DNA of 51,857 nucleotides, taken from positions 1-51,857 of IMG/VR virus record IMGVR_UViG_2925891887_000006; one strand, written 5' to 3'. Below, piece by piece: positions 1-50,849 of this stretch. A model generated the notes under the pieces. That model worked only from the letters and a program-made list of their open reading frames with translations. It ran no database searches and was not told the origin of the DNA. How positions within the stretch are numbered: the stretch's first letter is position 1; each line of letters begins with the position of its first letter. The DNA comes from a virus (Duplodnaviria > Heunggongvirae > Uroviricota > Caudoviricetes). Both the position numbers and the translations under genes were made by a program.

Positions 1-1206
1 TTACTTAGCGCATATTATTTTTTCTGCTAGAAAGCTAACTAAAGGAATATAGAAACTAACTAATTCTTCTGATTCAGTTAGAGGGATGTGACAATCCTCA
101 CGATTGTATTTGTCTGATGAGTGTACAAGTGCGTTTCTTATATGTTTCAGTACATGGGCTGTATTAGGAATCATATGCTCATTATTCTTAATATTTATGG
201 ATAAATTCTCGCCAAATATTTTTCTTGCTTTTGTGTAATGTTTCTCACCAATACTTTCTTCAAAATTTTCAATGAACTGCTTCAATTCATCCGGTTCAAT
301 ATATTTTTTAAGTACTCTAATCAACATGTCTTTTTCATCGGATTTATCATTATGTTTTTTGACAGTGTTTATTATTGACTCGATATCTGCTAATGATCCG
401 CTAAAATTTGTTGATTGTATGTTAGATCTTAGTTTAGCTTGTAACTCTTCTTCCGAAACACTTAGGAAGTTATATTCTAAAACATGATAATATGATAGGA
501 ATGATTGGCTTGGGAACTGGCTACTAACGGCAACTTTATAATAATTAACTAGATTTATATCATAGCTAGCAAAAGGAATATTGAGTTCAACTTCATCTTC
601 AGAAGTATATGCTATATTTAAAGAGCGGCGTTGTTTATATAGTTCCCAAGCTTGGCCGTAATCAACTGCTAGCTTGAATAAACAGCTATCGAAACATTTT
701 AATGCATCATCTAGCATTTTTTGCTGTTCGATTTTTCTCTTAAGATTATATTTTATTGTTATTGGAGTCCAAACAATAGTGTGGAAATAGACATATCCTA
801 AACGAACTCTATTAATCAGCCTTCTTTTTACAATTTTATCAATGAAGTTTTTGTAGTCTTCAGATTTAAAATGGCTAAGAGAAAATTCTTTGGTTGCTCT
901 TGATAGTTGTACTGTCTTTGATGAATTAGATTTGAATTCAAATGAAGGTGTTTCAAAAATATTTTGGTTTAATCGCTGAACAAAAACCTCAACTGTTCGA
1001 TAGCCAATCAATGTCCTCTTTTCAAGATCATATCGATATTGTCGGGATTTTGCAAAGTTAGATATTGCCTCATCATATCCTTCGTTGAATCTTACTTCCA
1101 CATCCTTGCCATCGATTTGTAAATATAATTTATCTTCTTGAACCTTACATTGAATGCCATTTGATTCGAAAACCTCTTTTACAAATTCAAAATTCATTTT
1201 TTTCAT
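1..1206 (-). CDS. Hypothetical 401-aa protein with C-terminal HEPN-like Rx4H motif (HIRNALVHS); candidate abortive-infection/defence cargo of the satellite
   Basis: Complete ORF with stop at 1..3; visibly AT-rich versus neighbours; lies distal to psu/delta where P4-like elements carry defence cargo. Confidence 0.6.
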   Translation of the reverse strand: MKKMNFEFVKEVFESNGIQCKVQEDKLYLQIDGKDVEVRFNEGYDEAISNFAKSRQYRYDLEKRTLIGYRTVEVFVQRLNQNIFETPSFEFKSNSSKTVQLSRATKEFSLSHFKSEDYKNFIDKIVKRRLINRVRLGYVYFHTIVWTPITIKYNLKRKIEQQKMLDDALKCFDSCLFKLAVDYGQAWELYKQRRSLNIAYTSEDEVELNIPFASYDINLVNYYKVAVSSQFPSQSFLSYYHVLEYNFLSVSEEELQAKLRSNIQSTNFSGSLADIESIINTVKKHNDKSDEKDMLIRVLKKYIEPDELKQFIENFEESIGEKHYTKARKIFGENLSINIKNNEHMIPNTAHVLKHIRNALVHSSDKYNREDCHIPLTESEELVSFYIPLVSFLAEKIICAK

Positions 1207-2239: not shown

Positions 2240-2787
2240 TCCTGTATATCGTTAATGTCATTCAGGCGTTGCTGAAAACGCAGGTGTTGTGCCGGGGTGT
2301 AAGAGCCCTGGCAATCACGAATCATCCCGGGGTCAGGCATCAAACCGGATTCATCTAGGATCTCACGATAATCCCCGACAATTTCAGGCGGTGTTATTGC
2401 CAGCTGGCGAACCAGAGCACTGCGTAATATACGAAACGCAACGTCAACCCCTCCGCGTCCCTTCAGGAACGGAGCCAGTGCAGATGTCAGGGCTGCCCCA
2501 TTCGCCTGCATAAAATTGCTGAGAGCAGCTTCTGTGCAGGCCTCCATCAATAAATGCTGCGAGTAAATGCATTCGCGCGCAGCACAGTTAATTTGCCATT
2601 TCAGCACATCCAGACGTTCCCGCAGTAATTCGAGCTGTCGGGCATAATCTGCTGGTTTTTCTGTGGCAGTGAGGAGAGATGCTATCTGTTGTTCAACGGC
2701 TTTTCGGCTCTCACTATGTCCGGCCCACAGAATACGGGCATTCCGAAAACTGGTAAGTGCCTGGTCAGGTGTGCCTCGGGCCGTCAT
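2236..2787 (-). CDS. psu: Psu-like polarity suppression protein
   Basis: 183 aa; resembles P4 Psu as recalled (ALTSALAP, TPAQ segments); start overlaps sid stop. Confidence 0.6.
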   Translation of the reverse strand: MTARGTPDQALTSFRNARILWAGHSESRKAVEQQIASLLTATEKPADYARQLELLRERLDVLKWQINCAARECIYSQHLLMEACTEAALSNFMQANGAALTSALAPFLKGRGGVDVAFRILRSALVRQLAITPPEIVGDYREILDESGLMPDPGMIRDCQGSYTPAQHLRFQQRLNDINDIQE

Positions 2788-3527
2788 ACTGCTTTCTCCT
2801 TCTCAGCAAGTTCCTGACGAACCTTTATTTTATGCATAGCTGCCGGAGAGAGTTGATTACTGAAATCCAGACGCGCCGCATAATCCGGGGCAACTCCCGC
2901 CAGTTTAAACACCGGGTCCTGTTCAGGCATCGCATCGTTAGCCAGAGCCGGTCTGGTGATATGTTTATGAATAAAGTCTTTCAGCACTGTGTCCGGGTCA
3001 TTAACTGAATTCACCACACCCACAACGGCACTGGCTTCCCGGCCCATTGTGGATTTAAGCAGGCTCAGCGTCTGAATAAGCGCTTTTCCATGCGACTGCA
3101 TAAAATCTTCCCAGATTTGTTTTGCGCGAATATCTACAAGGATGTTATGCGCGTGGATATACTTTCCGGCTAATTCCGCAGCTTTCTGCGGCAAAAGTGC
3201 ATTTTCGCTTTCCTGAGCCGCCAGCAGCTCATCAAAATCCTCAAGCGTTTCTCGTCCCAGCGCAATTTCCGTGCGCAGTTTTTTCATTTCCTTTGAGACC
3301 ACGCCCTGACTTTCACGAAACAGCGTGCGCCACTCCTCATTCAGTGTGTTCGTCGTGGCTTCCATTTCAGCGCGACGCTGGCGGATTGTCGCAATATTAT
3401 CCGCTGCCGCTTTCTGCTGACGACGTGCTTCAAGCCATGCGTTTCTGGCTGTGTTCATGGTTTCCAGTGCCCGCTGCGTTACAGCCGGAAAAGTGGAAAG
3501 GTTGTTATTCACTGCGGTGTTGTTCAT
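2784..3527 (-). CDS. sid: Sid-like capsid size-determination (external scaffold) protein
   Basis: 247 aa, coiled-coil-like; EEWRTLFRESQGVVS resembles P4 Sid as recalled; position upstream of psu. Confidence 0.5.
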   Translation of the reverse strand: MNNTAVNNNLSTFPAVTQRALETMNTARNAWLEARRQQKAAADNIATIRQRRAEMEATTNTLNEEWRTLFRESQGVVSKEMKKLRTEIALGRETLEDFDELLAAQESENALLPQKAAELAGKYIHAHNILVDIRAKQIWEDFMQSHGKALIQTLSLLKSTMGREASAVVGVVNSVNDPDTVLKDFIHKHITRPALANDAMPEQDPVFKLAGVAPDYAARLDFSNQLSPAAMHKIKVRQELAEKEKAV

Positions 3528-8499: not shown

Positions 8500-9381
8500 C
8501 TACCCCTTTTGTTTTAATCCCGCATGATTAACCGCTAATCGTAATTTTCTTAAGATTTCTTGTTCATTAGTGATAAATATTGGAGGTAGCTCTCCTAAAT
8601 GTTTAATTATGGCGTTAGTCCACTTTTCAGGACTTATCTCTTTTCTTTCACCACGACATTCGCTTGGGTATTTTGCTAATATATATATGGCTGCATTTAA
8701 TAACCCCCCCCTATTTTTTGCATGATGCTCAGCAGTGTTATTTAATCGCTTGGGGATTTTAGGTTCAGATGAAATTCTTTTCGTAAGTAAACTTGGCATA
8801 GGAATTCCAGTTTTTACTGATTTCCATATTAACTCTAAATCTCTTCGCATGATAAGAAGATCTTCAAATGGAATATCAATGACCTTATTTCCTTCATATG
8901 AGGCCGTTGCCATCAAAACATTATCTCGTATTTTTACCGGTTTAAGCCTGAATTCATAATCTGGATCTATAGCTAATCCATTTTTTATGTCACTTATCAT
9001 ATCATCGGCGTACCAAATACCACAGGCAAATCCTATAATTTGAAGCCCATTTTCAAAATGTTCAAAGGAGTCATCTTTAAGGTCATACCATATTGTTGAA
9101 AATTCCATCTCTAGTGATTGATTAGTTAATACGGGATGAATTAAGTCAATTTCCATTTTCTGATTTTTATAGAGGAAATTAACATTAAATCTAACTGCAA
9201 GTCCATCCGCCTTGAATGCGATATTAAAAGCGCCTATTTCGTATAGGTGTAATAAATCATCAATCTCGCATTCTAATAGTCTTGAAGCGCGTTCAAATGA
9301 ACAATATTCTAATGGTGGTATTTTTTTGTCAATCCATAGATTTCCTAAGAATATAGTTTCATTCTCTTTTGAATGCTGCAT
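8500..9381 (-). CDS. Hypothetical AT-rich 293-aa protein between int and alpA (accessory cargo)
   Basis: Long ORF, low GC versus flanking int and alpA, no recognisable motif. Confidence 0.6.
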   Translation of the reverse strand: MQHSKENETIFLGNLWIDKKIPPLEYCSFERASRLLECEIDDLLHLYEIGAFNIAFKADGLAVRFNVNFLYKNQKMEIDLIHPVLTNQSLEMEFSTIWYDLKDDSFEHFENGLQIIGFACGIWYADDMISDIKNGLAIDPDYEFRLKPVKIRDNVLMATASYEGNKVIDIPFEDLLIMRRDLELIWKSVKTGIPMPSLLTKRISSEPKIPKRLNNTAEHHAKNRGGLLNAAIYILAKYPSECRGERKEISPEKWTNAIIKHLGELPPIFITNEQEILRKLRLAVNHAGLKQKG

Positions 9382-9411: not shown

Positions 9412-10746
9412 TTAATTGATAATGTTAATACCTGATAAGTCATAAGGAGCATGAAATTCGTCCTTATTTAGTTCCAGATAATTAGACCACCATTGCATCA
9501 TTCTGCGGCGTTCCTGCATGTGCTGCGCAAGATGCACATATGCTGCCCGCACTTCGTTTCTTTCTTGGTGACTCATCTGCCGTTCAACTGCATCGCGTGA
9601 CCAGAGTCCTGATTCGGTCAGTGCAGAGCAGGCCATCGCCCTGAACCCATGCAAGCAAACATCACTTTGAGTGTCGTAACCCATCGTTCGCAGTGCTTTA
9701 TTAACTGTGTTTTCGCTCATCGGTTTATATGGGTTGCTGTCACCGGGGAAAACCAGCAGATATTCACCACTGATTTTCCTTATATCCTCCAGTACCCCGA
9801 TAGCCTGACTAGATAGCGGGACATAATGAGCAGCCCCCATCTTTGCACCCCGCTCTGAGAATTTAACCCCTGCGATCTCTTCACGTTGTCCTGGTATCGT
9901 CCATAGCCCATTTTCAATGTCGATCTCCTCCCATCTGGCATGTCGTAGTTCGCTGGATCGCACAAAAGTGTGCAGGGAAAATAGAACTGCTAGGCGAGTC
10001 AATGGTCTTCCCGTGTAACTTCTCGTTTTCGCTAACAGTTCAGGTAAACGTTCGAGAGGTAGTGCGGGGCGATGTCGTACTTTGGGGGTCGTAATTGCAC
10101 CTTTTAGATCGTGGGCAGGGTTGTAATCGACAATTCCACGTTGCACGGCATAACGGAAGATGCTCGTCATAGTGGTTTTTACCCGGCTCGTTGTGGCACC
10201 AATTCCTTTCTCAGTCATCTCAACCAGCATCGGCATCAAGTCACGGGTTTTGAGCGTATCGATAGGCTTTGAACCGATGGCAGGAAAGAGGTGGTTTTCC
10301 ATTTCTCGGAGAATTTTTTTACGGGTGATCTCTTTCCACTCAGGATGCCCTATCGTTCTACTATGCCACTCTCTGGCAACACTCTCGAACGTGGGGGAAA
10401 TTGGGTCTTCCTTTTTGGGTTTCTTTGCTTCGCGAGGATCACGACCATCGGCTAGTAGTTGCCTGGCTTCATCACGCCGTTTCCGCGCTGTTGCAAGTGA
10501 GACATCTGGGTAGACCCCTAATGCCAATGTCACTTGTTTTCCATCAAAACGATAATTCATACGCCAGTATTTTCCACCAGTCTTTCGTACCAGTAGATAC
10601 AAACTCCCTCCATCGGTAAGTTTGTAATCATTGGTCTTCGGCTTGGCGTTTTCTATCTGTTTGGGGGAAAGCACATTAATGGCCATATCTGTACTCATTT
10701 TGGTAGATTGATGGTATCTGCATATCGAACTGGGGAATACCATCAC
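9412..10746 (-). CDS. int: Tyrosine integrase, P4-type
   Basis: 444-aa ORF (true start may be an internal Met); N-terminal arm-binding-like region and C-terminal catalytic region; adjacent to att core copy. Confidence 0.9.
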   Translation of the reverse strand: MMVFPSSICRYHQSTKMSTDMAINVLSPKQIENAKPKTNDYKLTDGGSLYLLVRKTGGKYWRMNYRFDGKQVTLALGVYPDVSLATARKRRDEARQLLADGRDPREAKKPKKEDPISPTFESVAREWHSRTIGHPEWKEITRKKILREMENHLFPAIGSKPIDTLKTRDLMPMLVEMTEKGIGATTSRVKTTMTSIFRYAVQRGIVDYNPAHDLKGAITTPKVRHRPALPLERLPELLAKTRSYTGRPLTRLAVLFSLHTFVRSSELRHARWEEIDIENGLWTIPGQREEIAGVKFSERGAKMGAAHYVPLSSQAIGVLEDIRKISGEYLLVFPGDSNPYKPMSENTVNKALRTMGYDTQSDVCLHGFRAMACSALTESGLWSRDAVERQMSHQERNEVRAAYVHLAQHMQERRRMMQWWSNYLELNKDEFHAPYDLSGINIIN

Positions 10747-11542: not shown

Positions 11543-11986
11543 TCATTTTTCCTCTTTTGGTTTATGAATCTGAACTGGCAAGTTGTAAGTTTGGCTTACA
11601 GGTTGGTTACTCTGAAGCATGGCGGCGCGGCAGGCGTTCCAGCCATCAACATAATCAAACGTATTGCTATCGTCTGGCTCGATTTCATCTGGCACTATCA
11701 GCACCGGCTGGACGGTGACATTGGCAAAGGCAGCACGCAACCCGGTTTTAATTTCTTCGATTTCATCAGAGCCAAGCGATGAGTCAGAAAGCGCATGGTG
11801 AAATGCGTAAGCCATGTCGTCGTTGATTTCTACAGGCACACTATCAGCCTTGCGGCGCTCCTGTAGCTCGCGCAGAGCCGCTACAACATAATGGCTATTG
11901 TGCTGGTCAGCCCACAGAATGAGCCGAATCAACGTTGCATTTGAAACGTATTCGTCTGTTAGTTTGCTATTGGTAAAAGTGGTCAT
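11543..11986 (-). CDS. Hypothetical early-left protein
   Basis: 147-aa ORF overlapping the upstream HNH stop. Confidence 0.55.
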   Translation of the reverse strand: MTTFTNSKLTDEYVSNATLIRLILWADQHNSHYVVAALRELQERRKADSVPVEINDDMAYAFHHALSDSSLGSDEIEEIKTGLRAAFANVTVQPVLIVPDEIEPDDSNTFDYVDGWNACRAAMLQSNQPVSQTYNLPVQIHKPKEEK

Positions 11987-12348
11987 GCCGTAGCCCCTTC
12001 TTGATATTTTTCAAACCAGAACACAACTGGGTCAGATTTCATTTCAACCAATCCCATACGAACCAGCGCTTTGCCTTTCCCGGACGCAAGGAATTCACGA
12101 CGACCATCACTGATAATTCGCCGATAATCTTCCAGACTACTGCAATGCTTGTGCAGATTGCATGGGTGGCATGCCGGAACCATGTTGGATATATCGTCAC
12201 GTTCCTGGTGAAGCATATTTCCATCAAAACGGATGACCGGTTTTACATGGTCTGCATGCCACTTTTCGCCAAGTTCGCAGCCGCAATAAGCGCAGCGACC
12301 ACCGAACTTCATGCGCAGTTCTGCGCGTTGTTTTTTCGTCAGTGACAT
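11983..12348 (-). CDS. HNH endonuclease
   Basis: CAYCG...HADHVKP...CHPCN motif. Confidence 0.75.
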   Translation of the reverse strand: MSLTKKQRAELRMKFGGRCAYCGCELGEKWHADHVKPVIRFDGNMLHQERDDISNMVPACHPCNLHKHCSSLEDYRRIISDGRREFLASGKGKALVRMGLVEMKSDPVVFWFEKYQEGATA

Positions 12349-12349
12349 A

Positions 12350-12568
12350 TCAGCTTTCCTTATACGGATTAATTTTATTGTGTAGTGTGTTGAATGGTCC
12401 CCATATCACATCGGTATATAACTCAATAATAGGTTCAATTATTTTCACGATTATCCAGACAAAAATTAGCGGGGATATCGGTATCATCAACACGATAAAC
12501 AGAATGAGAAACAAAAATTCTGTCGCTCTACTTTTTCGCGGATATTCTTTTCTGAATAATGTAGTCAT
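12350..12568 (-). CDS. Small membrane protein
   Basis: 72 aa with one long hydrophobic segment; AT-rich. Confidence 0.45.
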   Translation of the reverse strand: MTTLFRKEYPRKSRATEFLFLILFIVLMIPISPLIFVWIIVKIIEPIIELYTDVIWGPFNTLHNKINPYKES

Positions 12569-12600
12569 TTCTTACCGCCCTTTCGGGCGGCCTCCTGACA

Positions 12601-12813
12601 TTAATCGTTGTGATAACTCATAGCTTCATTTGCAGCATCAACTGGATCAACATCCCACCAGCAATAATTTGGTTCGACTCCTTCAGGTGTCCACGGCTCT
12701 AATTCATTTTTTGCCGCATTCTCGTCGCCAGTAATTTTAAAAATCTGCTCAGAAAATTTCCTCACCCACTCGTTATATTTTTCCGCATTAATGGTTTTCT
12801 GTGTATTTAACAT
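12601..12813 (-). CDS. Hypothetical protein
   Basis: 70-aa ORF, AT-rich. Confidence 0.45.
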   Translation of the reverse strand: MLNTQKTINAEKYNEWVRKFSEQIFKITGDENAAKNELEPWTPEGVEPNYCWWDVDPVDAANEAMSYHND

Positions 12814-12863
12814 AGATATACCTCCAGTTAAGGATTTGATTTTATTTACAGTGCTAAATTTAT

Positions 12864-13220
12864 TTATTCAGTTCTGGATTTCGTCGCCCTGCGTATCCGC
12901 GCTTTCGCGTTACGCTCAATCTGAATTAACTTTTCTATATTTTTCCGTCTTTCCTGTTCCTCCTGGCGCAATAGCCTTACATCATCTGCCAGTCTGGTTT
13001 CTCTTTTCGCCACAGAGAGCATCCAGTCAAACGGCTCCACAACTGCACCGCAGATTTTACAGCGGACCTGACGCTCTTTTTCGTCAACCCGGACAGAAGC
13101 GTGATGGCAGTATGGTCTTTCCGATGGCTCATAAAGAAAATTAACCTGATTACGTGGGTCATCCTCTTTTACCGGAAATAAAACAATATTACTTAACTCA
13201 TCTTCTGGTTTTATTTCCAC
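12864..13220 (-). CDS. Hypothetical protein with putative zinc ribbon
   Basis: 118 aa; C-x-H...CKIC pattern. Confidence 0.5.
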   Translation of the reverse strand: MEIKPEDELSNIVLFPVKEDDPRNQVNFLYEPSERPYCHHASVRVDEKERQVRCKICGAVVEPFDWMLSVAKRETRLADDVRLLRQEEQERRKNIEKLIQIERNAKARIRRATKSRTE

Positions 13221-13221
13221 G

Positions 13222-13755
13222 TCACTCTCCTTTGATGCGAATGCCAGCGACGCCGTGATTCATGTGGAATCCAAGCCTTGCCTGAGCTTCCTCTCTTGCT
13301 CTTACAGCATCAGAGAATTTAATGAAGCTACCAATGTGCTTGTGCTTACCATTTTCGCGTATGTAGGCAATCCATCTTTTATGGCTAGGATTCCAGGTAA
13401 CACCTGTGCAGCCTCCAATGTTGTCCTTTCGTATCGAAGAGTTCTTTTGGTTTCCCTGATTATCAACAAGGCGCAGATTCTCTATTCGGTTATCAGTTCG
13501 GTCGTGGTTAATGTGATCAACCTGCATGTCTGTTGGTATATCGCCATGAACAAGACACCACGCTAATCTATGAGCCTTATATCGACTCCCTTTGATTTGA
13601 ATTTCTACATAACCTTGAGCGCTGATTCCTCCGGCCCGCTTCCCTGCAATTCGAGTATTCCAAACCTTGCATGTGCGGCTGTCAGAAAACGAACTTGGTT
13701 CGCGCTTCTTCCAGAAAAAAATCCTTCCCATCGTAGTGAAGGTGTTCCTCAACAA
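13222..13755 (-). CDS. HNH homing-endonuclease-like protein with AP2-like domain
   Basis: HRLAW...DHINHDRTDNRIENLR; paralogue of CDS 25099..25623. Confidence 0.75.
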   Translation of the reverse strand: MLRNTFTTMGRIFFWKKREPSSFSDSRTCKVWNTRIAGKRAGGISAQGYVEIQIKGSRYKAHRLAWCLVHGDIPTDMQVDHINHDRTDNRIENLRLVDNQGNQKNSSIRKDNIGGCTGVTWNPSHKRWIAYIRENGKHKHIGSFIKFSDAVRAREEAQARLGFHMNHGVAGIRIKGE

Positions 13756-13984
13756 ATTCCTTTGTGATTACCTTTGCTTTACGCTGCGCCTGTTTGTCGA
13801 TGTTGCTCACTGTTTGCCTCCTTTGCGCCACATCGCATTCAGATATTTGTTTTGATTCACTGACGGAAAAGAATTTCTCTTAAGCAATTCCTCTCTCGGT
13901 GGCATTGGCTTTACGCGTTGGCGAATAATCATTTCTGCCGGAAGAATGCCGGGATTGTATGCAAGTCCTCTCATGGTAAATTCC

Positions 13985-24088: not shown

Positions 24089-24267
24089 GGCGACAGCGAC
24101 GAAGTTTCACCGACATCATCTGCGAAAACTGCAAATACCTTCCAACGAAACGCTCCAGAAATAAACGCAAGCCAATCCCAAAAGAATCTGACGTAAAAAC
24201 CTTCAATTACACGGCTCACCTGTGGGATATCCGGTGGCTTAGAGAACGTGCGAGGAAAACAAGGTGA
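24085..24267 (+). CDS. ninE: NinE
   Basis: [23 protein letters not shown]... matches lambda NinE as recalled. Confidence 0.8.
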
Positions 24268-24437
24268 TTGACCCAAATCGAAGTTACGAACAAGGAAGTG
24301 TCGAGCGAGCTTTAACGTGCGCTAACTGCGGTCAGAAGCTGCATGTGCTGGAAGTTCACGTGTGCTCCGATTGCTGCGCAGAACTGATGAGCGATCCGAA
24401 TAGCTCAATGTACGAGGAAGAAGACGATGGTGATTAG
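24264..24437 (+). CDS. ninF: NinF (GTG start)
   Basis: Hand-translated [34 protein letters not shown]...; below ORF-track cutoff. Confidence 0.6.
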
Positions 24438-24819
24438 CCGATACGGACAAATAACGTTTAAACATTTTCAAGACAATCCAACATGGGCTGCTGCGGCTGG
24501 ATATGACTTTAATTATTTTGATTGTCTGTCAGTCGCATGTATTGCAACTACCAATGTTGCTAACAACATAATCGATGAATTCTTGGATTTTCCAGAATAT
24601 CAGGTCAGAGAGTTGCCTGCATTTTTTGTGAAAGTATCTGTTGCTACAGCTCTGTTATTTATTTTGTTATTCGCATATCCATTGCTTGCCGTATTTGTTT
24701 ATGTGAGATGCAAGCACTCACAAAAGGAATACAGCGGAGAGCATACCGATATTACCAGCACAAATATGCGAGTGTGGTTGAGGAGATGCCAAGAGAATTG
24801 GGGGAGACGTCATGGCTAA
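24427..24819 (+). CDS. Hypothetical protein with C-terminal TM segment (nin-region insert)
   Basis: 130 aa; AT-rich; hydrophobic stretch LPAFFVKVSVATALLFILLFAYPLLAVFVYV. Confidence 0.5.
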   Translation: MVISRYGQITFKHFQDNPTWAAAAGYDFNYFDCLSVACIATTNVANNIIDEFLDFPEYQVRELPAFFVKVSVATALLFILLFAYPLLAVFVYVRCKHSQKEYSGEHTDITSTNMRVWLRRCQENWGRRHG

Positions 24820-25102
24820 CCTACGCAAAGAAGCTCGCGGCAGAGAATGCCAGGTACGTATTTACGGCGTATGCAATGGTAATCCTGAAACTACAGTTCT
24901 GGCACATTACCGGATGGCTGGAATTTGCGGAACGGGAATGAAACCTGACGACCTGATCGGTGCATGGGCTTGTAGTGACTGCCACGCGGAGATCGACCGA
25001 CGCACAAGGATTCTCGACAACAAAGACGCCAGACTTTACCACCTCGAAGGCGTGATCAGGACGCAGGCGATACTGCTGAAGGAGGGAAAGATTAAGCCAT
25101 GA
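24812..25102 (+). CDS. YbcO-like (DUF1364) Cys-rich protein
   Basis: 96 aa with several Cys/His; resembles the gene that precedes rusA in lambdoid prophages. Confidence 0.55.
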   Translation: MANLRKEARGRECQVRIYGVCNGNPETTVLAHYRMAGICGTGMKPDDLIGAWACSDCHAEIDRRTRILDNKDARLYHLEGVIRTQAILLKEGKIKP

Positions 25103-25623
25103 ACGGTAAAAGATATCCAACACAAAAAGAAATCAATGAATTGTATGAATATAATAGCGAAACAGGTTTGTTTATATACAAGAGAAGAGAAAGTGTAAGA
25201 GAGTGCTGGAATTCAACATATGCCGGTAAGATTGCTGGTTCTATAGATGAAAAAGGATACGTTCGTATATCTGTAAATAAAAAAGTTTGTCGAGCTCATA
25301 GAATCGCATGGATATCCTTTTATGGAAGTGAACCTGATGGGGAAATTGACCACATAAATGGAATTAAAAGTGATAACAGAATATGCAATTTGCGCGTTGT
25401 AGATGATAAACAGAACTCAAGGAACAGAAAAAAGCCTATTAATAATCGCTCTGGAGTAATGGGTGTTGCCTACTATAAGAAGAATAAAAAGTGGGGCGCA
25501 TATATAAACAGTGATAATAAAAAGATATTTCTTGGATTATACGATGACATATCTCTAGCCGTTAATGCCAGAAAATTGGCGGAATCACGATTGGGGTATC
25601 ACCATAATCATGGGAGAGGATAA
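25099..25623 (+). CDS. HNH homing-endonuclease-like protein with AP2-like domain
   Basis: HRIAW...DHINGIKSDNRICNLR; AT-rich; paralogue of 13222..13755. Confidence 0.75.
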   Translation: MNGKRYPTQKEINELYEYNSETGLFIYKRRESVRECWNSTYAGKIAGSIDEKGYVRISVNKKVCRAHRIAWISFYGSEPDGEIDHINGIKSDNRICNLRVVDDKQNSRNRKKPINNRSGVMGVAYYKKNKKWGAYINSDNKKIFLGLYDDISLAVNARKLAESRLGYHHNHGRG

Positions 25624-25986
25624 ATGGCAGAATACAGATTCACACTTCCGTACCCACCGTCGCTGAACACCTACTGGCGAAGACGGGGAAGCCAATACTA
25701 CATCAGCGATAAAGGCCAGAAATACCGAAAAGACGTTCAGCAAATCATCCGCCAACTCAAGTTAGACATTTTCACCAAATCACGACTCCGCATCAAAGTC
25801 ATCGCAGACGTTCCAGACTCCCGCCGCCGCGACCTCGATAACATCCTGAAGGGTTTACTCGACTCCCTTATCCACGCCGGATTTGCGGAAGACGACGAGC
25901 AATTCGATGACATTCGCGTAATTCGTGGTGTGAAAGTACCAGGCGGACGGCTTGGAATAAAAATCACCGAACTGGAGAACGCATGA
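25624..25986 (+). CDS. rusA: RusA Holliday-junction resolvase
   Basis: 120 aa; RusA family pattern. Confidence 0.85.
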   Translation: MAEYRFTLPYPPSLNTYWRRRGSQYYISDKGQKYRKDVQQIIRQLKLDIFTKSRLRIKVIADVPDSRRRDLDNILKGLLDSLIHAGFAEDDEQFDDIRVIRGVKVPGGRLGIKITELENA

Positions 25987-30482: not shown

Positions 30483-30971
30483 ATGGCAGCACCAAAGGGC
30501 AACCGATTTTGGGAGGCCCGCAGTAGTCATGGGCGAAATCCTAAATTCGAATCGCCTGAGGCGCTGTGGGCTGCTTGTTGTGAATACTTCGAGTGGGCTG
30601 ATGATAACCCACTATGGGAGGGTAAGGTATTTTCATATCAGGGAGAAATAATTAAGGCTAATGTCCCTAAGATGCGAGCCATGACTATTTCAGGATTGTG
30701 TACCTTCCTTGATATCACCAGGCAAACATGGGGAACCTTCCGGTCAATGGAAGGTTTTTCTGACGTCACATCACGAGCGGAAGACATCATCTACGACCAG
30801 AAATTCTCTGGCGCAGCCGCTGACCTTCTCAACGCTAACATCATCGCCCGTGATTTGGGCCTCAAAGAGCAGTCGCAAGTTGAAGACGTGACACCTGATA
30901 AGGGAGATCGCGATAAGCGACGCTCTCGTATCAAGGAGCTATTCAACCGTGGAACTGGACGCGATTCTTGA
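30483..30971 (+). CDS. Terminase small subunit (P22 gp3-like)
   Basis: 162 aa; immediately precedes and overlaps the large terminase. Confidence 0.8.
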
Positions 30972-32448
30972 TAACCTGAGCGACGAAGAGCAAATAGAAT
31001 TGCTCGAGCTACTCGAAGAAGAAGAGAACTACCGTAACACACACCTGCTATATGAATTTACGCCATACAGCAAACAGCGTGAGTTCATCGACGCCGGACA
31101 TGACTATCCAGAGCGATGTTTTATGGCTGGTAACCAGCTTGGTAAGTCATTTACTGGTGCTGCTGAAGTCGCGTTTCACCTTACAGGGCGTTATCCGGGA
31201 ACAAAAGGCTATCCTGCTGATGGTAAATATGGTGGGGAGTGGAAAGGTAAGCGTTTCTATGAGCCTGTTGTCTTCTGGATTGGCGGCGAGACAAACGAGA
31301 CTGTAACCAAAACGACTCAACGCATCCTGTGTGGTCGTATCGAAGAGAATGATGAGCCAGGCTACGGTTCCATACCTAAAGAAGACATCATTAGCTGGAA
31401 GAAGTCTCCTTTCTTTCCGAACCTTGTTGATCATCTTCTGGTTAAGCATCACACGGCTGATGGCGTTGAAGATGGCATTTCAATCTGCTACTTCAAGCCA
31501 TACTCGCAAGGCCGTGCTCGCTGGCAGGGTGACACAATCCACGGCGTGTGGTTTGACGAAGAGCCACCATACAGCATTTATGGCGAAGGTCTTACCCGTA
31601 CCAACAAATACGGGCAATTCTCAATTCTGACGTTTACCCCGCTGATGGGGATGTCTGACGTTGTTACCAAGTTCCTGAAGAATCCCAGCAAGTCGCAGAA
31701 AGTGGTCAACATGACCATCTATGACGCTGAGCACTACACCGAAGAGCAGAAAGAGCAAATCATCGCATCCTATCCTGAGCATGAGAGAGAGGCGCGTGCT
31801 CGCGGTATTCCTACGATGGGTAGCGGTCGAATCTTCCAGATACCGGAAGAGACGATTAAGTGTCAGCCGTTCGAGTGTCCTGATCACTTTTACGTAATTG
31901 GCGGGATGGATTTCGGATGGGATCACCCTCAGGCGCAGGTTCAGCTTTGGTGGGATAAGGACGCAGACACAATCTACGTTTCACGCGTGTGGAAGGCGAA
32001 AGAAAAAACAGCCGTTCAGGCGTGGGGAGCCGTTAAATCATGGGCGCATAAAGTGCCAACCGCATGGCCTCATGACGGAAACCAGCATGAGAAGGGCGGC
32101 GGTGAGCAGCTCAAAGGGCAGTATGCAGACGCTGGTTTTATGATGTTGCAGGAGCATGCGACATGGCCTGATGGCGGTAATGCTGTGGAGCCTGGCATCA
32201 CTGAATTGCGCGACATGATGCTCGATGGTCGCTTCAAAGTATTCAACACCTGTGAGCCATTCTTTGAGGAGTTCCGCCTCTATCACCGTGATGAAAACGG
32301 GAAGATCGTCAAGCTTAACGACGACGTTCTCTCAGCCGTTCGCTATGCATACATGATGCGCCGCTTCGCCAAAATGATGCGCGACATCAAAAAACCAAAA
32401 GAGAAAAAGATACCAGCCCCAATCAGGCCCATCGCACGGAGAACTTAA
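30949..32448 (+). CDS. Terminase large subunit (P22 gp2-like)
   Basis: 499 aa; ATPase and nuclease regions. Confidence 0.9.
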
Positions 32449-50774: not shown

Positions 50775-50849
50775 TGGTGTCCCCTGCAGGAATCGAACCT
50801 GCAATTAGCCCTTAGGAGGGGCTCGTTATATCCATTTAACTAAGAGGAC
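50775..50849 (-). tRNA. argW: tRNA-Arg (anticodon CCU)
   Basis: Minus-strand GTCCTCTTAGTTAAATGGATATAACGAGCCCCTCCTAAGGGCTAATTGCAGGTTCGATTCCTGCAGGGGACACCA; cloverleaf with CCU anticodon and encoded CCA. Confidence 0.92.
50777..50789. repeat. att core within the 3' end of argW (GTGTCCCCTGCAG)
   Basis: Identical 13-mer at 10873..10885. Confidence 0.6.

Follow-up and report, generated by a model that had tools for sequence, protein, structure and literature searches.

A probable homing endonuclease gene between ybcO and rusA in a P22-like Escherichia coli prophage

Introduction

Homing endonucleases have been studied extensively in lytic T-even phages but far less in temperate lambdoid and P22-like phages, and the origin of the mosaic junctions at gene boundaries of lambdoid phages is an old question. 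I-HmuI, which is encoded in an intron of Bacillus phage SPO1, has nicking activity, and an HNH-AP2 family of homing endonucleases was reportedly described by Magnani et al. in 2004. Here we analyze three HNH nuclease genes in a stretch of 51,857 nucleotides, IMG/VR record IMGVR_UViG_2925891887_000006 (hereafter, the window). The window holds a P22-like E. coli prophage, and all three genes are in the early operons of this prophage. We call them HNH-A, HNH-B, and HNH-C. We focus on HNH-B (25099..25623, plus strand), which encodes a 174-amino-acid protein with an HNH_3 domain and an AP2-like domain and lies between ybcO and rusA. HNH-B is probably a free-standing homing endonuclease gene (HEG) that invaded the ybcO-rusA junction of lambdoid and P22-like prophages. 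Genes of this type are known selfish elements.

Several described systems resemble HNH-B in part. In structure, the closest is I-HmuI (PDB 1u3e). It too has 174 amino acids and a DH...N...N motif of the HNH_3 type, and, as in the model of HNH-B, its elongated monomer carries the nuclease and the DNA-binding module at opposite ends. However, I-HmuI is intron-encoded and has a helix-turn-helix at its DNA-binding end, while HNH-B is free-standing and is predicted to end in an AP2-like beta-beta-beta-alpha unit. The combination of an HNH domain at the N-terminus with an AP2 domain at the C-terminus defines a described family of HEGs, which includes the "IPA-HNH" genes of Vibrio phage ICP1 (PMC10448857). 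The ICP1 HEGs share with the genes described here this domain order, decay by frameshift (a typical signature of HEGs; PMC10448857), variable presence among related phages, and a location at the boundaries of genetic exchange. But the ICP1 genes are too diverged to match the HNH_3 profile, which HNH-A and HNH-B match strongly, and their carriers are lytic, while HNH-A and HNH-B are in a temperate P22-like/lambdoid prophage.

The free-standing HEGs of the T-even phages (Seg proteins and MobE; PMC2988022, PMC2790892) also lie between conserved genes, and they spread by gene conversion, in which the markers on either side are co-converted; this has been described as intronless homing. The free-standing enzymes of T4 are mostly GIY-YIG proteins and often cut hundreds of base pairs away from their own genes. 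In contrast, the recoding that is linked to HNH-B lies 0–45 bp from the insert, which suggests that its target is nearby, as for intron-encoded enzymes. Finally, gene 31 of the P22-like Salmonella phage epsilon34 consists of the N-terminus of eaE fused to an HNH HEG (PMC2629481). This is the same "captured start" design that we find for HNH-A, which begins like an ead/Ea22 gene, and for HNH-B, which begins like rusA. Gene 31 differs in that another ea gene is involved, its HNH part is reported to be related to Lactobacillus phage enzymes, and there is no population-level evidence for it in that report. Earlier work had already established the protein family, the combination of folds, and intronless homing as a mechanism. 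New here are the HNH-B element itself, the exact site and anatomy of its insertion, and evidence at the population level for a candidate target.

HNH-B is inserted at one exact site

We surveyed 5,426 complete E. coli genomes. We also used IMG/VR viral contigs, a collection of 5.8 billion proteins, 185,579 species-representative genomes (one per species), and phage records (with tblastn). The complete E. coli genomes often contain a nin region, but only 32 of them (0.6%) have HNH-B, always at 99% identity or above. Its upstream neighbor is ybcO (DUF1364; 24812..25102, plus strand; 148 bits to Pfam YbcO, PF07102), and its downstream neighbor is rusA, which encodes a Holliday-junction resolvase (25624..25986, plus strand; 60.9 bits to Pfam RusA, PF05866). 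An earlier note on this sequence proposed that HNH-B splits two genes of the nin region that are normally adjacent, and the genomes bear this out: an uninterrupted junction of 80 nt is found in at least 796 of them (~15%), with up to four copies per genome. HNH-B occupies about 4% of the ybcO-rusA sites. The same note held that a conserved vertical component, with no insertion polymorphism, would speak against invasion. This is not what we see for HNH-B, whose site is occupied in 32 genomes and empty in at least 796.

We inspected 23 occupied loci, from six E. coli chromosomes and 17 IMG/VR viral contigs, and these represent 21 haplotypes. In all 23, HNH-B separates ybcO from rusA, the junctions do not differ, and the ORF is intact at every full-length locus. 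The genes farther out are not constant: upstream, there may be a KilAC antirepressor, NinX, or small ORFs, and downstream, the type of Q antiterminator varies.

We set the junctions by comparing HNH-positive and empty alleles directly, as the automatic placement of gaps by MAFFT is arbitrary here. The insertion is precisely 525 bp and matches the ORF exactly. In empty alleles (such as our comparison loci L002 and L003), the stop codon of ybcO overlaps the start codon of rusA (ATGA), and rusA begins with ATGAACGAATAT. In occupied alleles, the sequence ATGAACG (25099..25105, plus strand), which is common to the start of HNH-B and to the rusA start of empty alleles, opens HNH-B instead (MNG...). 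HNH-B takes the former start codon of rusA, so it should stay translationally coupled to ybcO. At its other end, HNH-B finishes with GGGAGAGGATAA (25612..25623, plus strand), which combines a Shine-Dalgarno-like sequence with the stop codon, and the new ATG of rusA follows directly: rusA restarts with ATGGCAGAATAC. By its sequence, then, HNH-B supplies rusA with both a Shine-Dalgarno-like element and a new start codon.

The composition of HNH-B is also unusual. Its GC content is 0.349, while the nin region is otherwise at 0.497. In the protein collection, HNH-B belongs to a cluster of E. coli proteins at 99% identity, and there are no other proteins above ~55% identity. The low GC content and the lack of relatives between 99% and ~55% identity point to a recent foreign arrival.

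In E. coli CP147050 (L011, 748..1938), ybcO and the 5' portion of HNH-B have been lost through an IS1A insertion/deletion, and the truncated HNH ORF is still joined to a rusA gene with the recoded patch described below. In the window, a 130-amino-acid ORF from AT-rich DNA (24427..24819, plus strand; local GC ~0.39; phrog_2638, with one hydrophobic segment) occupies the space between ninF and ybcO. In relatives, a KilAC antirepressor or a 70-amino-acid ORF takes its place, which makes this another variable slot of the nin region.

A recoded patch of rusA is linked to HNH-B

The first 44 nt of rusA in occupied alleles (the patch; 25624..25668, plus strand) differ from the empty alleles by 14 substitutions, which change four codons nonsynonymously and five synonymously. 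Beyond the patch, in the remaining 319 nt of rusA, occupied and empty alleles have just 1–10 differences, which is the same range as among the occupied alleles. For instance, the window and the empty allele L003 differ at 14 of 44 positions in the patch and at 4 of 319 in the rest of rusA (Fisher p=4e-11).

The linkage between the patch and HNH-B is perfect. A megablast search with the 44-nt patch found exactly 32 of the complete E. coli genomes, and these are the same 32 that carry HNH-B. An exact 32-mer from the patch was found in 18 viral contigs from IMG/VR. Of these, 17 are the HNH-B contigs, and the 18th begins inside HNH-B: it has 145 nt of the 3' end of the gene, with one mismatch. The patch was never seen without the gene (32/32 genomes and 18/18 viral contigs). 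On one contig, the patch seemed at first to occur with a different HNH gene (44% identical), but we rejected this, as the contig starts inside HNH-B and the other paralog is 3.5 kb away. We found no donor lineage: the 32-mer has no matches in the 185,579 species-representative genomes, and there is no HNH-free match in IMG/VR. We infer from this pattern that the patch is either a disrupted target site, which would block cleavage and make the allele immune, or the co-converted flank of a donor.

Two of the substitutions in the patch hit the sole GC-rich element of the presumed target, which reads CCGCCGTCGG in empty alleles (25650..25665, plus strand). The reverse complement of CCGCCGTCGG contains ACCGAC, which is the core of the DRE element bound by plant AP2 domains. 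This element could be contacted by the AP2-like domain of HNH-B; it is a lead only, and too short for statistics.

HNH-B and the patch together form a 569-bp unit (25099..25667) that is nearly invariant, while its flanks are 3–4% diverged. Across the 21 haplotypes, nucleotide diversity is 0.0073 in HNH-B and 0 in the patch, compared to 0.040 in ybcO and 0.031 in the rest of rusA. The ybcO gene of the window has six differences from an empty allele, compared to 10–20 from other occupied alleles. Also, there is a C/T polymorphism at position -2, just before the start codon, and another at position +45 of rusA, and all four combinations are found among the occupied loci. Both states at -2 occur in empty alleles as well. 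These combinations imply exchange with HEG-less backgrounds up to both edges of the 569-bp unit.

Could this pattern arise if the HNH genes are only passive passengers? They might be accessory modules that were inserted once, by illegitimate recombination, and that spread only by homologous recombination at gene boundaries, with no role for the nuclease. The nin and early-left regions are both pervasively mosaic in the lambdoid prophages that we compared, which fits this explanation, as does the low occupancy of HNH-B. But the HNH-B cassette is invariant, and in many backgrounds recombination in its flanks reaches as close as 2 nt on the left and about 5 nt past the patch on the right. Exchange so close to both edges of an invariant cassette fits short conversion tracts initiated by a break better than it fits random crossovers. 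The HNH-AP2 architecture, which is that of known HEGs, and the presence of several paralogs at distinct sites, including one within a coding sequence (see below), also argue against passive cargo, and we consider this explanation to be unlikely.

HNH-A and HNH-B belong to a mobile family of HNH-AP2 proteins

The three HNH genes are present as ORFs where the earlier note had placed them, and its claim that HNH-A and HNH-B are paralogs is correct: BLASTP aligns them at 41% identity over 157 amino acids (E=8e-38). Both match the HNH_3 profile (PF13392), with 65.5 bits for HNH-A and 60.7 bits for HNH-B (the cut-off is 24.8). Our comparison also agreed that HNH-C is unrelated in sequence to the other two, and we rejected it as a third paralog; it matches a different profile (PF01844).

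The description of these proteins as AP2-like is right at the level of structure and not of Pfam scores. HNH-A has 21.5 bits to the AP2 profile, compared to a cut-off of 33.3, and HNH-B has no match; a sequence search of the PDB gave no significant match to an AP2 domain either (WRI1, E=0.34). However, many homologs in the protein collection have precomputed hits to AP2 (PF00847), and the predicted structure supports the label. In the AlphaFold (AF2) model of HNH-B, which was built from an alignment of 67 sequences and has a mean pLDDT of 94, residues 123–165 form a C-terminal beta-beta-beta-alpha unit. In this model, the unit superposes on the AP2 domains of TEM1, WRI1, and AtERF1 with an rmsd of 1.1–1.4 Å over 45–50 columns.

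The top Foldseek match for the model is I-HmuI (1u3e; E=3.9e-4, probability 1.00), and AP2 domains are next. I-HmuI is also the best match in the PDB by sequence (E=0.0096). The global TM-score between the model and 1u3e is only 0.42, which is consistent with a different orientation of the domains. Residues H67, D84, H85, N87, N97, and N109, which include the predicted catalytic and metal positions of the beta-beta-alpha-metal finger, are invariant across 67 homologs, including HNH-A and HNH-B, and they align with the DH...N motif of I-HmuI. HNH-A and HNH-B are I-HmuI-like HNH_3 nucleases with an AP2-like C-terminal domain, where the AP2 part is assigned from the structural model of HNH-B. RefSeq already annotates these genes as HNH endonucleases. 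With tblastn, we detected HNH-B relatives in 3,541 phage records. None of them reaches 60% identity, and homing endonuclease is a common annotation among them.

Other members of the family are found elsewhere in lambdoid prophages. A third paralog (168 amino acids, 39–42% identical to HNH-A and HNH-B, and 70 bits to HNH_3) lies inside the coding sequence of ninF in E. coli CP018953 and CP183996 (L009 and L010, both at 445..951). There, ninF is split into two fragments, and both prophages carry HNH-B as well. The ninF gene of the window (24264..24437, plus strand) is intact. In a viral contig that also has HNH-B between ybcO and rusA (IMGVR_UViG_3300045988_022724; L042), a fourth paralog (2477..3028; 183 amino acids, 44% identical to HNH-B) separates the Rz lysis gene from a Rha-family gene. 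A more distant HNH_3 gene (148 amino acids) is directly upstream of HNH-A, in tandem, in E. coli CP178707 (L015, 2584..3030), beside a DUF2737 pseudogene. By sequence, the HNH_3-AP2 family appears to be mobile in lambdoid phages, with paralogs at several distinct sites.

We made two further observations about HNH genes in the early-left region. The tandem HNH_3 gene of CP178707 ends in RKGGNQ, which mimics the C-terminus of DUF2737. And in an HNH-A-free prophage of E. coli CP116900 (L017, 3030..3453), an annotated HNH endonuclease gene lies right after ssb in the early-left operon.

Homing as a probable explanation for HNH-B

The best-supported reading of these patterns is that HNH-B is active, or was recently active, as a HEG. 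The earlier note had suggested invasion by homing endonucleases, and four features of HNH-B are consistent with this: polymorphism at one site, aberrant GC content, a linked and recoded flank, and near-invariance within diverged flanks. The case for HNH-A is weaker, and HNH-C shows no sign of it. Comparing HNH-B to relatives without the insertion identified one exact insertion site and a candidate target, as that note had envisioned, while the same comparison for HNH-A gave only variable neighbors. HEGs are present or absent at one defined site, and the carrier allele differs near that site. For HNH-B we see both, the second being the 14 substitutions of the 44-nt patch at the start of rusA; HNH-A is variably present, with no single defined pair of occupied and empty sites.

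If HNH-B homes, it would be expressed from the nin operon during lytic growth. The elongated, I-HmuI-like protein, with its N-terminal/HNH domain and its AP2-like DNA-binding domain, would bind the empty junction together with the 5' end of rusA, over about 40 bp, and the AP2-like domain would be placed at the distal, GC-rich end of this target. Bound HNH-B would nick or cut the junction in a co-resident phage or prophage that lacks the HEG. The phage's recombination functions would repair the break from the HEG-positive copy, and the gene would be copied in, with short tracts of co-conversion. The one indirect sign of such super-Mendelian inheritance is that HNH-B is less diverse than its flanks. 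The insertion and the 14 substitutions would make the carrier allele resistant to cutting.

Several considerations weigh against homing. A low-diversity island around a single ancestral insertion could arise by ordinary recombination of the flanks, without an endonuclease. The patch could be just the flank of the donor lineage and not a determinant of immunity. The occupancy of ~4% is unlike that of a highly efficient drive at equilibrium, although a recent arrival, or rare co-infection by temperate phages, could explain it. As for HNH-A, we found no consistent downstream flank or pair of empty-site alleles among the relatives that we compared, and the copy in the window is probably inactive.

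Another possibility is that HNH-B, and perhaps HNH-C, has been domesticated and serves the phage, for instance by excluding the markers of rivals at their ybcO-rusA junctions, or by acting with recombination of the RusA/NinG type. HNH-B does lie among the recombination and repair genes of the nin region, and the capture of a start codon and the donation of a Shine-Dalgarno sequence would keep these genes expressed. The abundance of candidate sensitive junctions in E. coli and the intact ORF at all full-length loci are also compatible with a useful function. However, HNH-B is rare, and related prophages do without it in the great majority of cases. Neither a regulatory gene nor a partner gene co-varies with it, and its paralog HNH-A decays by frameshift. 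Domestication seems quite improbable to us, and we favor homing.

HNH-A is a frameshifted paralog

The ORF that was first noted for HNH-A (13222..13755, minus strand) is present, but it is not a complete gene. It is the C-terminal part of a frameshifted gene (13222..13810, minus strand) whose frame is restored by removing one A. The intact form has 195 codons and a GTG start codon that overlaps the stop codon of DUF2737 (GTGA). The frameshift is in a homopolymer, A7 (13715..13721, minus strand; T7 on the coding strand), where intact copies have T6. Loci L004 and L012, which have the same early-left arrangement as the window, share its T7 allele, and intact T6 copies are found in L013, L014, and L015. 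The +1 frameshift cuts off the first 32 codons, which leaves an N-terminal fragment (13682..13810) and a C-terminal ORF (13222..13731 or 13222..13755). Because the extra base breaks the frame and its deletion restores the full ORF, we take 13222..13755 to be part of a gene that is probably inactive. In the structural model, restarting at the ATG at 13731 would cost the N-terminal domain its first helix and strand.

Two other statements in the earlier note need correction. First, HNH-A and HNH-B were both said to be AT-rich, but only HNH-B has an unusual composition: the GC content of HNH-A is 0.456, compared to 0.436 for the early-left operon. Second, they were said to sit in intergenic slots, which is not so, because neither gene has a spacer on either side. 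Both are ORF-exact insertions.

HNH-A is found at 99% identity or above in 16 of the complete E. coli genomes. Its upstream neighbor is usually the DUF2737 gene (13807..13974, minus strand; 107 bits to Pfam DUF2737). Among the HNH-A loci, homology stops exactly at the stop codon, and the next gene differs between prophages. The 3' end of HNH-A, AAAGGAGAGTGA (13222..13233, minus strand), is analogous to that of HNH-B and would provide a Shine-Dalgarno sequence for whichever gene follows. In prophages without HNH-A, DUF2737 is followed by the ead/Ea22 gene, and the first 10 codons of HNH-A (13781..13810, minus strand) match the 5' end of that gene at ~80% identity (L005 and L018, compared to the window). 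This similarity suggests that HNH-A, like HNH-B, is fused to the initiation region of a displaced gene.

We did not find any patch-like recoding of the 3' end of DUF2737 that is linked to HNH-A; the same ending is present in HNH-A-positive alleles and in some empty ones. Our survey of IMG/VR found just one HNH-A locus, which does not suffice for statistics; this copy is 90% identical and has different neighbors on both sides. Because the neighbors of HNH-A vary on both sides across its relatives, no single target site can be defined. This variability is also what simple carriage as a mosaic module would look like. With weaker support than for HNH-B, we suggest that HNH-A is an older or decaying paralog of the same kind, now one of the modules that are shuffled in the mosaic early-left region.

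HNH-C is part of a variable cassette

HNH-C (11983..12348, minus strand) encodes a protein of 121 amino acids, with 28.2 bits to PF01844 (the cut-off is 21.4) and a match to phrog_2118 ("HNH endonuclease"; E=7e-57). It has no separate DNA-binding domain. The complete gene is present in 384 of the E. coli genomes, and a further 318 match only its last 45–51 nt. In HNH-C-free prophages (L019 and L020), a pair of ORFs of 87 and 55 amino acids fills the slot between DUF4014 and the downstream gene. The last 15 codons and the stop codon of HNH-C (11983..12030, minus strand) are identical to the 3' end of the 55-amino-acid ORF (1501..1548 in L019 and L020), and in both arrangements this shared terminus, at a mosaic junction, overlaps the ATG of the next gene. 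The first few codons of HNH-C are common with the 87-amino-acid ORF. From these comparisons, HNH-C appears to be a variable accessory gene in a cassette replacement that is typical of the lambdoid mosaic. That HNH-C is one of two alternative cassettes with common termini is in line with passive spread by recombination at gene boundaries.

In the locus comparisons, we saw no sign of homing for HNH-C. We also considered whether HNH-C could be a packaging-associated HNH protein that assists terminase, as HK97 gp74 does. Its size is similar, and it has the PF01844 HNH motif. However, HNH-C belongs to the early-left operon and is not adjacent to the terminase gene (30949..32448), which is 19 kb away, and the structural module is P22-like, of the headful type. 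Also, HNH-C is absent from most of the related prophages, which have unrelated small ORFs instead. A packaging role is very improbable. Because HNH-C lacks a separate DNA-binding domain and is 19 kb from the terminase, neither homing nor packaging is supported.

The earlier note had listed three small ORFs between HNH-C and HNH-A (12350..13220, minus strand). These are real genes from known phage families, all on the minus strand: DUF4014/phrog_1832 (12350..12568; GC 0.338), phrog_4659 (12601..12813; GC 0.385), and the Zn-ribbon-like phrog_1621, or orf118 (12864..13220; GC 0.448).

The prophage is a mosaic

The prophage in the window has an early-left operon and an early-right/nin operon. Its other features include the integrase (9412..10746); ORFs with the sizes of terminase, portal, scaffold, and coat proteins (30.9–36.8 kb), where 30949..32448 has the size of the large terminase; an ORF with the size of a tailspike (47.1–49.3 kb); and tRNA-Arg(CCT) (50775..50849). 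Just beyond the integrase gene, a 293-amino-acid ORF (8500..9381, minus strand) lies in very AT-rich DNA (GC ~0.33), which may be cargo of the prophage or part of a flanking island.

The early-left arm of the window is closest to CP195467 (97.9%), and the nin region is closest to CP066366 (97.7%). None of the 5,426 complete E. coli genomes contain both HNH-A and HNH-B: all 16 genomes with HNH-A lack HNH-B. Since no genome has both genes and the two arms are closest to different genomes, the prophage in the window is a mosaic combination that is not represented in this collection.

Implications

HNH-B offers a clean natural experiment: a defined mobile unit of 569 bp, hundreds of empty alleles, and a candidate recognition region of 40 bp with 14 linked substitutions. 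As HNH-B is a small HNH-AP2 enzyme (174 amino acids) with a predicted target, its specificity, and homing between prophages, are open to direct test.

We speculate, with considerable doubt, that HNH-AP2 genes act as weapons or as drivers of exchange among co-resident lambdoid prophages. Upon induction or infection, HNH-B might cut the ybcO-rusA junctions of its relatives, which would force conversion or exclude rival markers at a mosaic boundary. As part of the same speculation, start-codon capture plus Shine-Dalgarno donation, as seen for HNH-A and HNH-B (and with the common termini of HNH-C), might be a rule for how nuclease genes enter coupled operons without polar effects. If such a rule holds, then homing endonucleases would be a significant cause of the mosaic junctions at gene boundaries in lambdoid phages.

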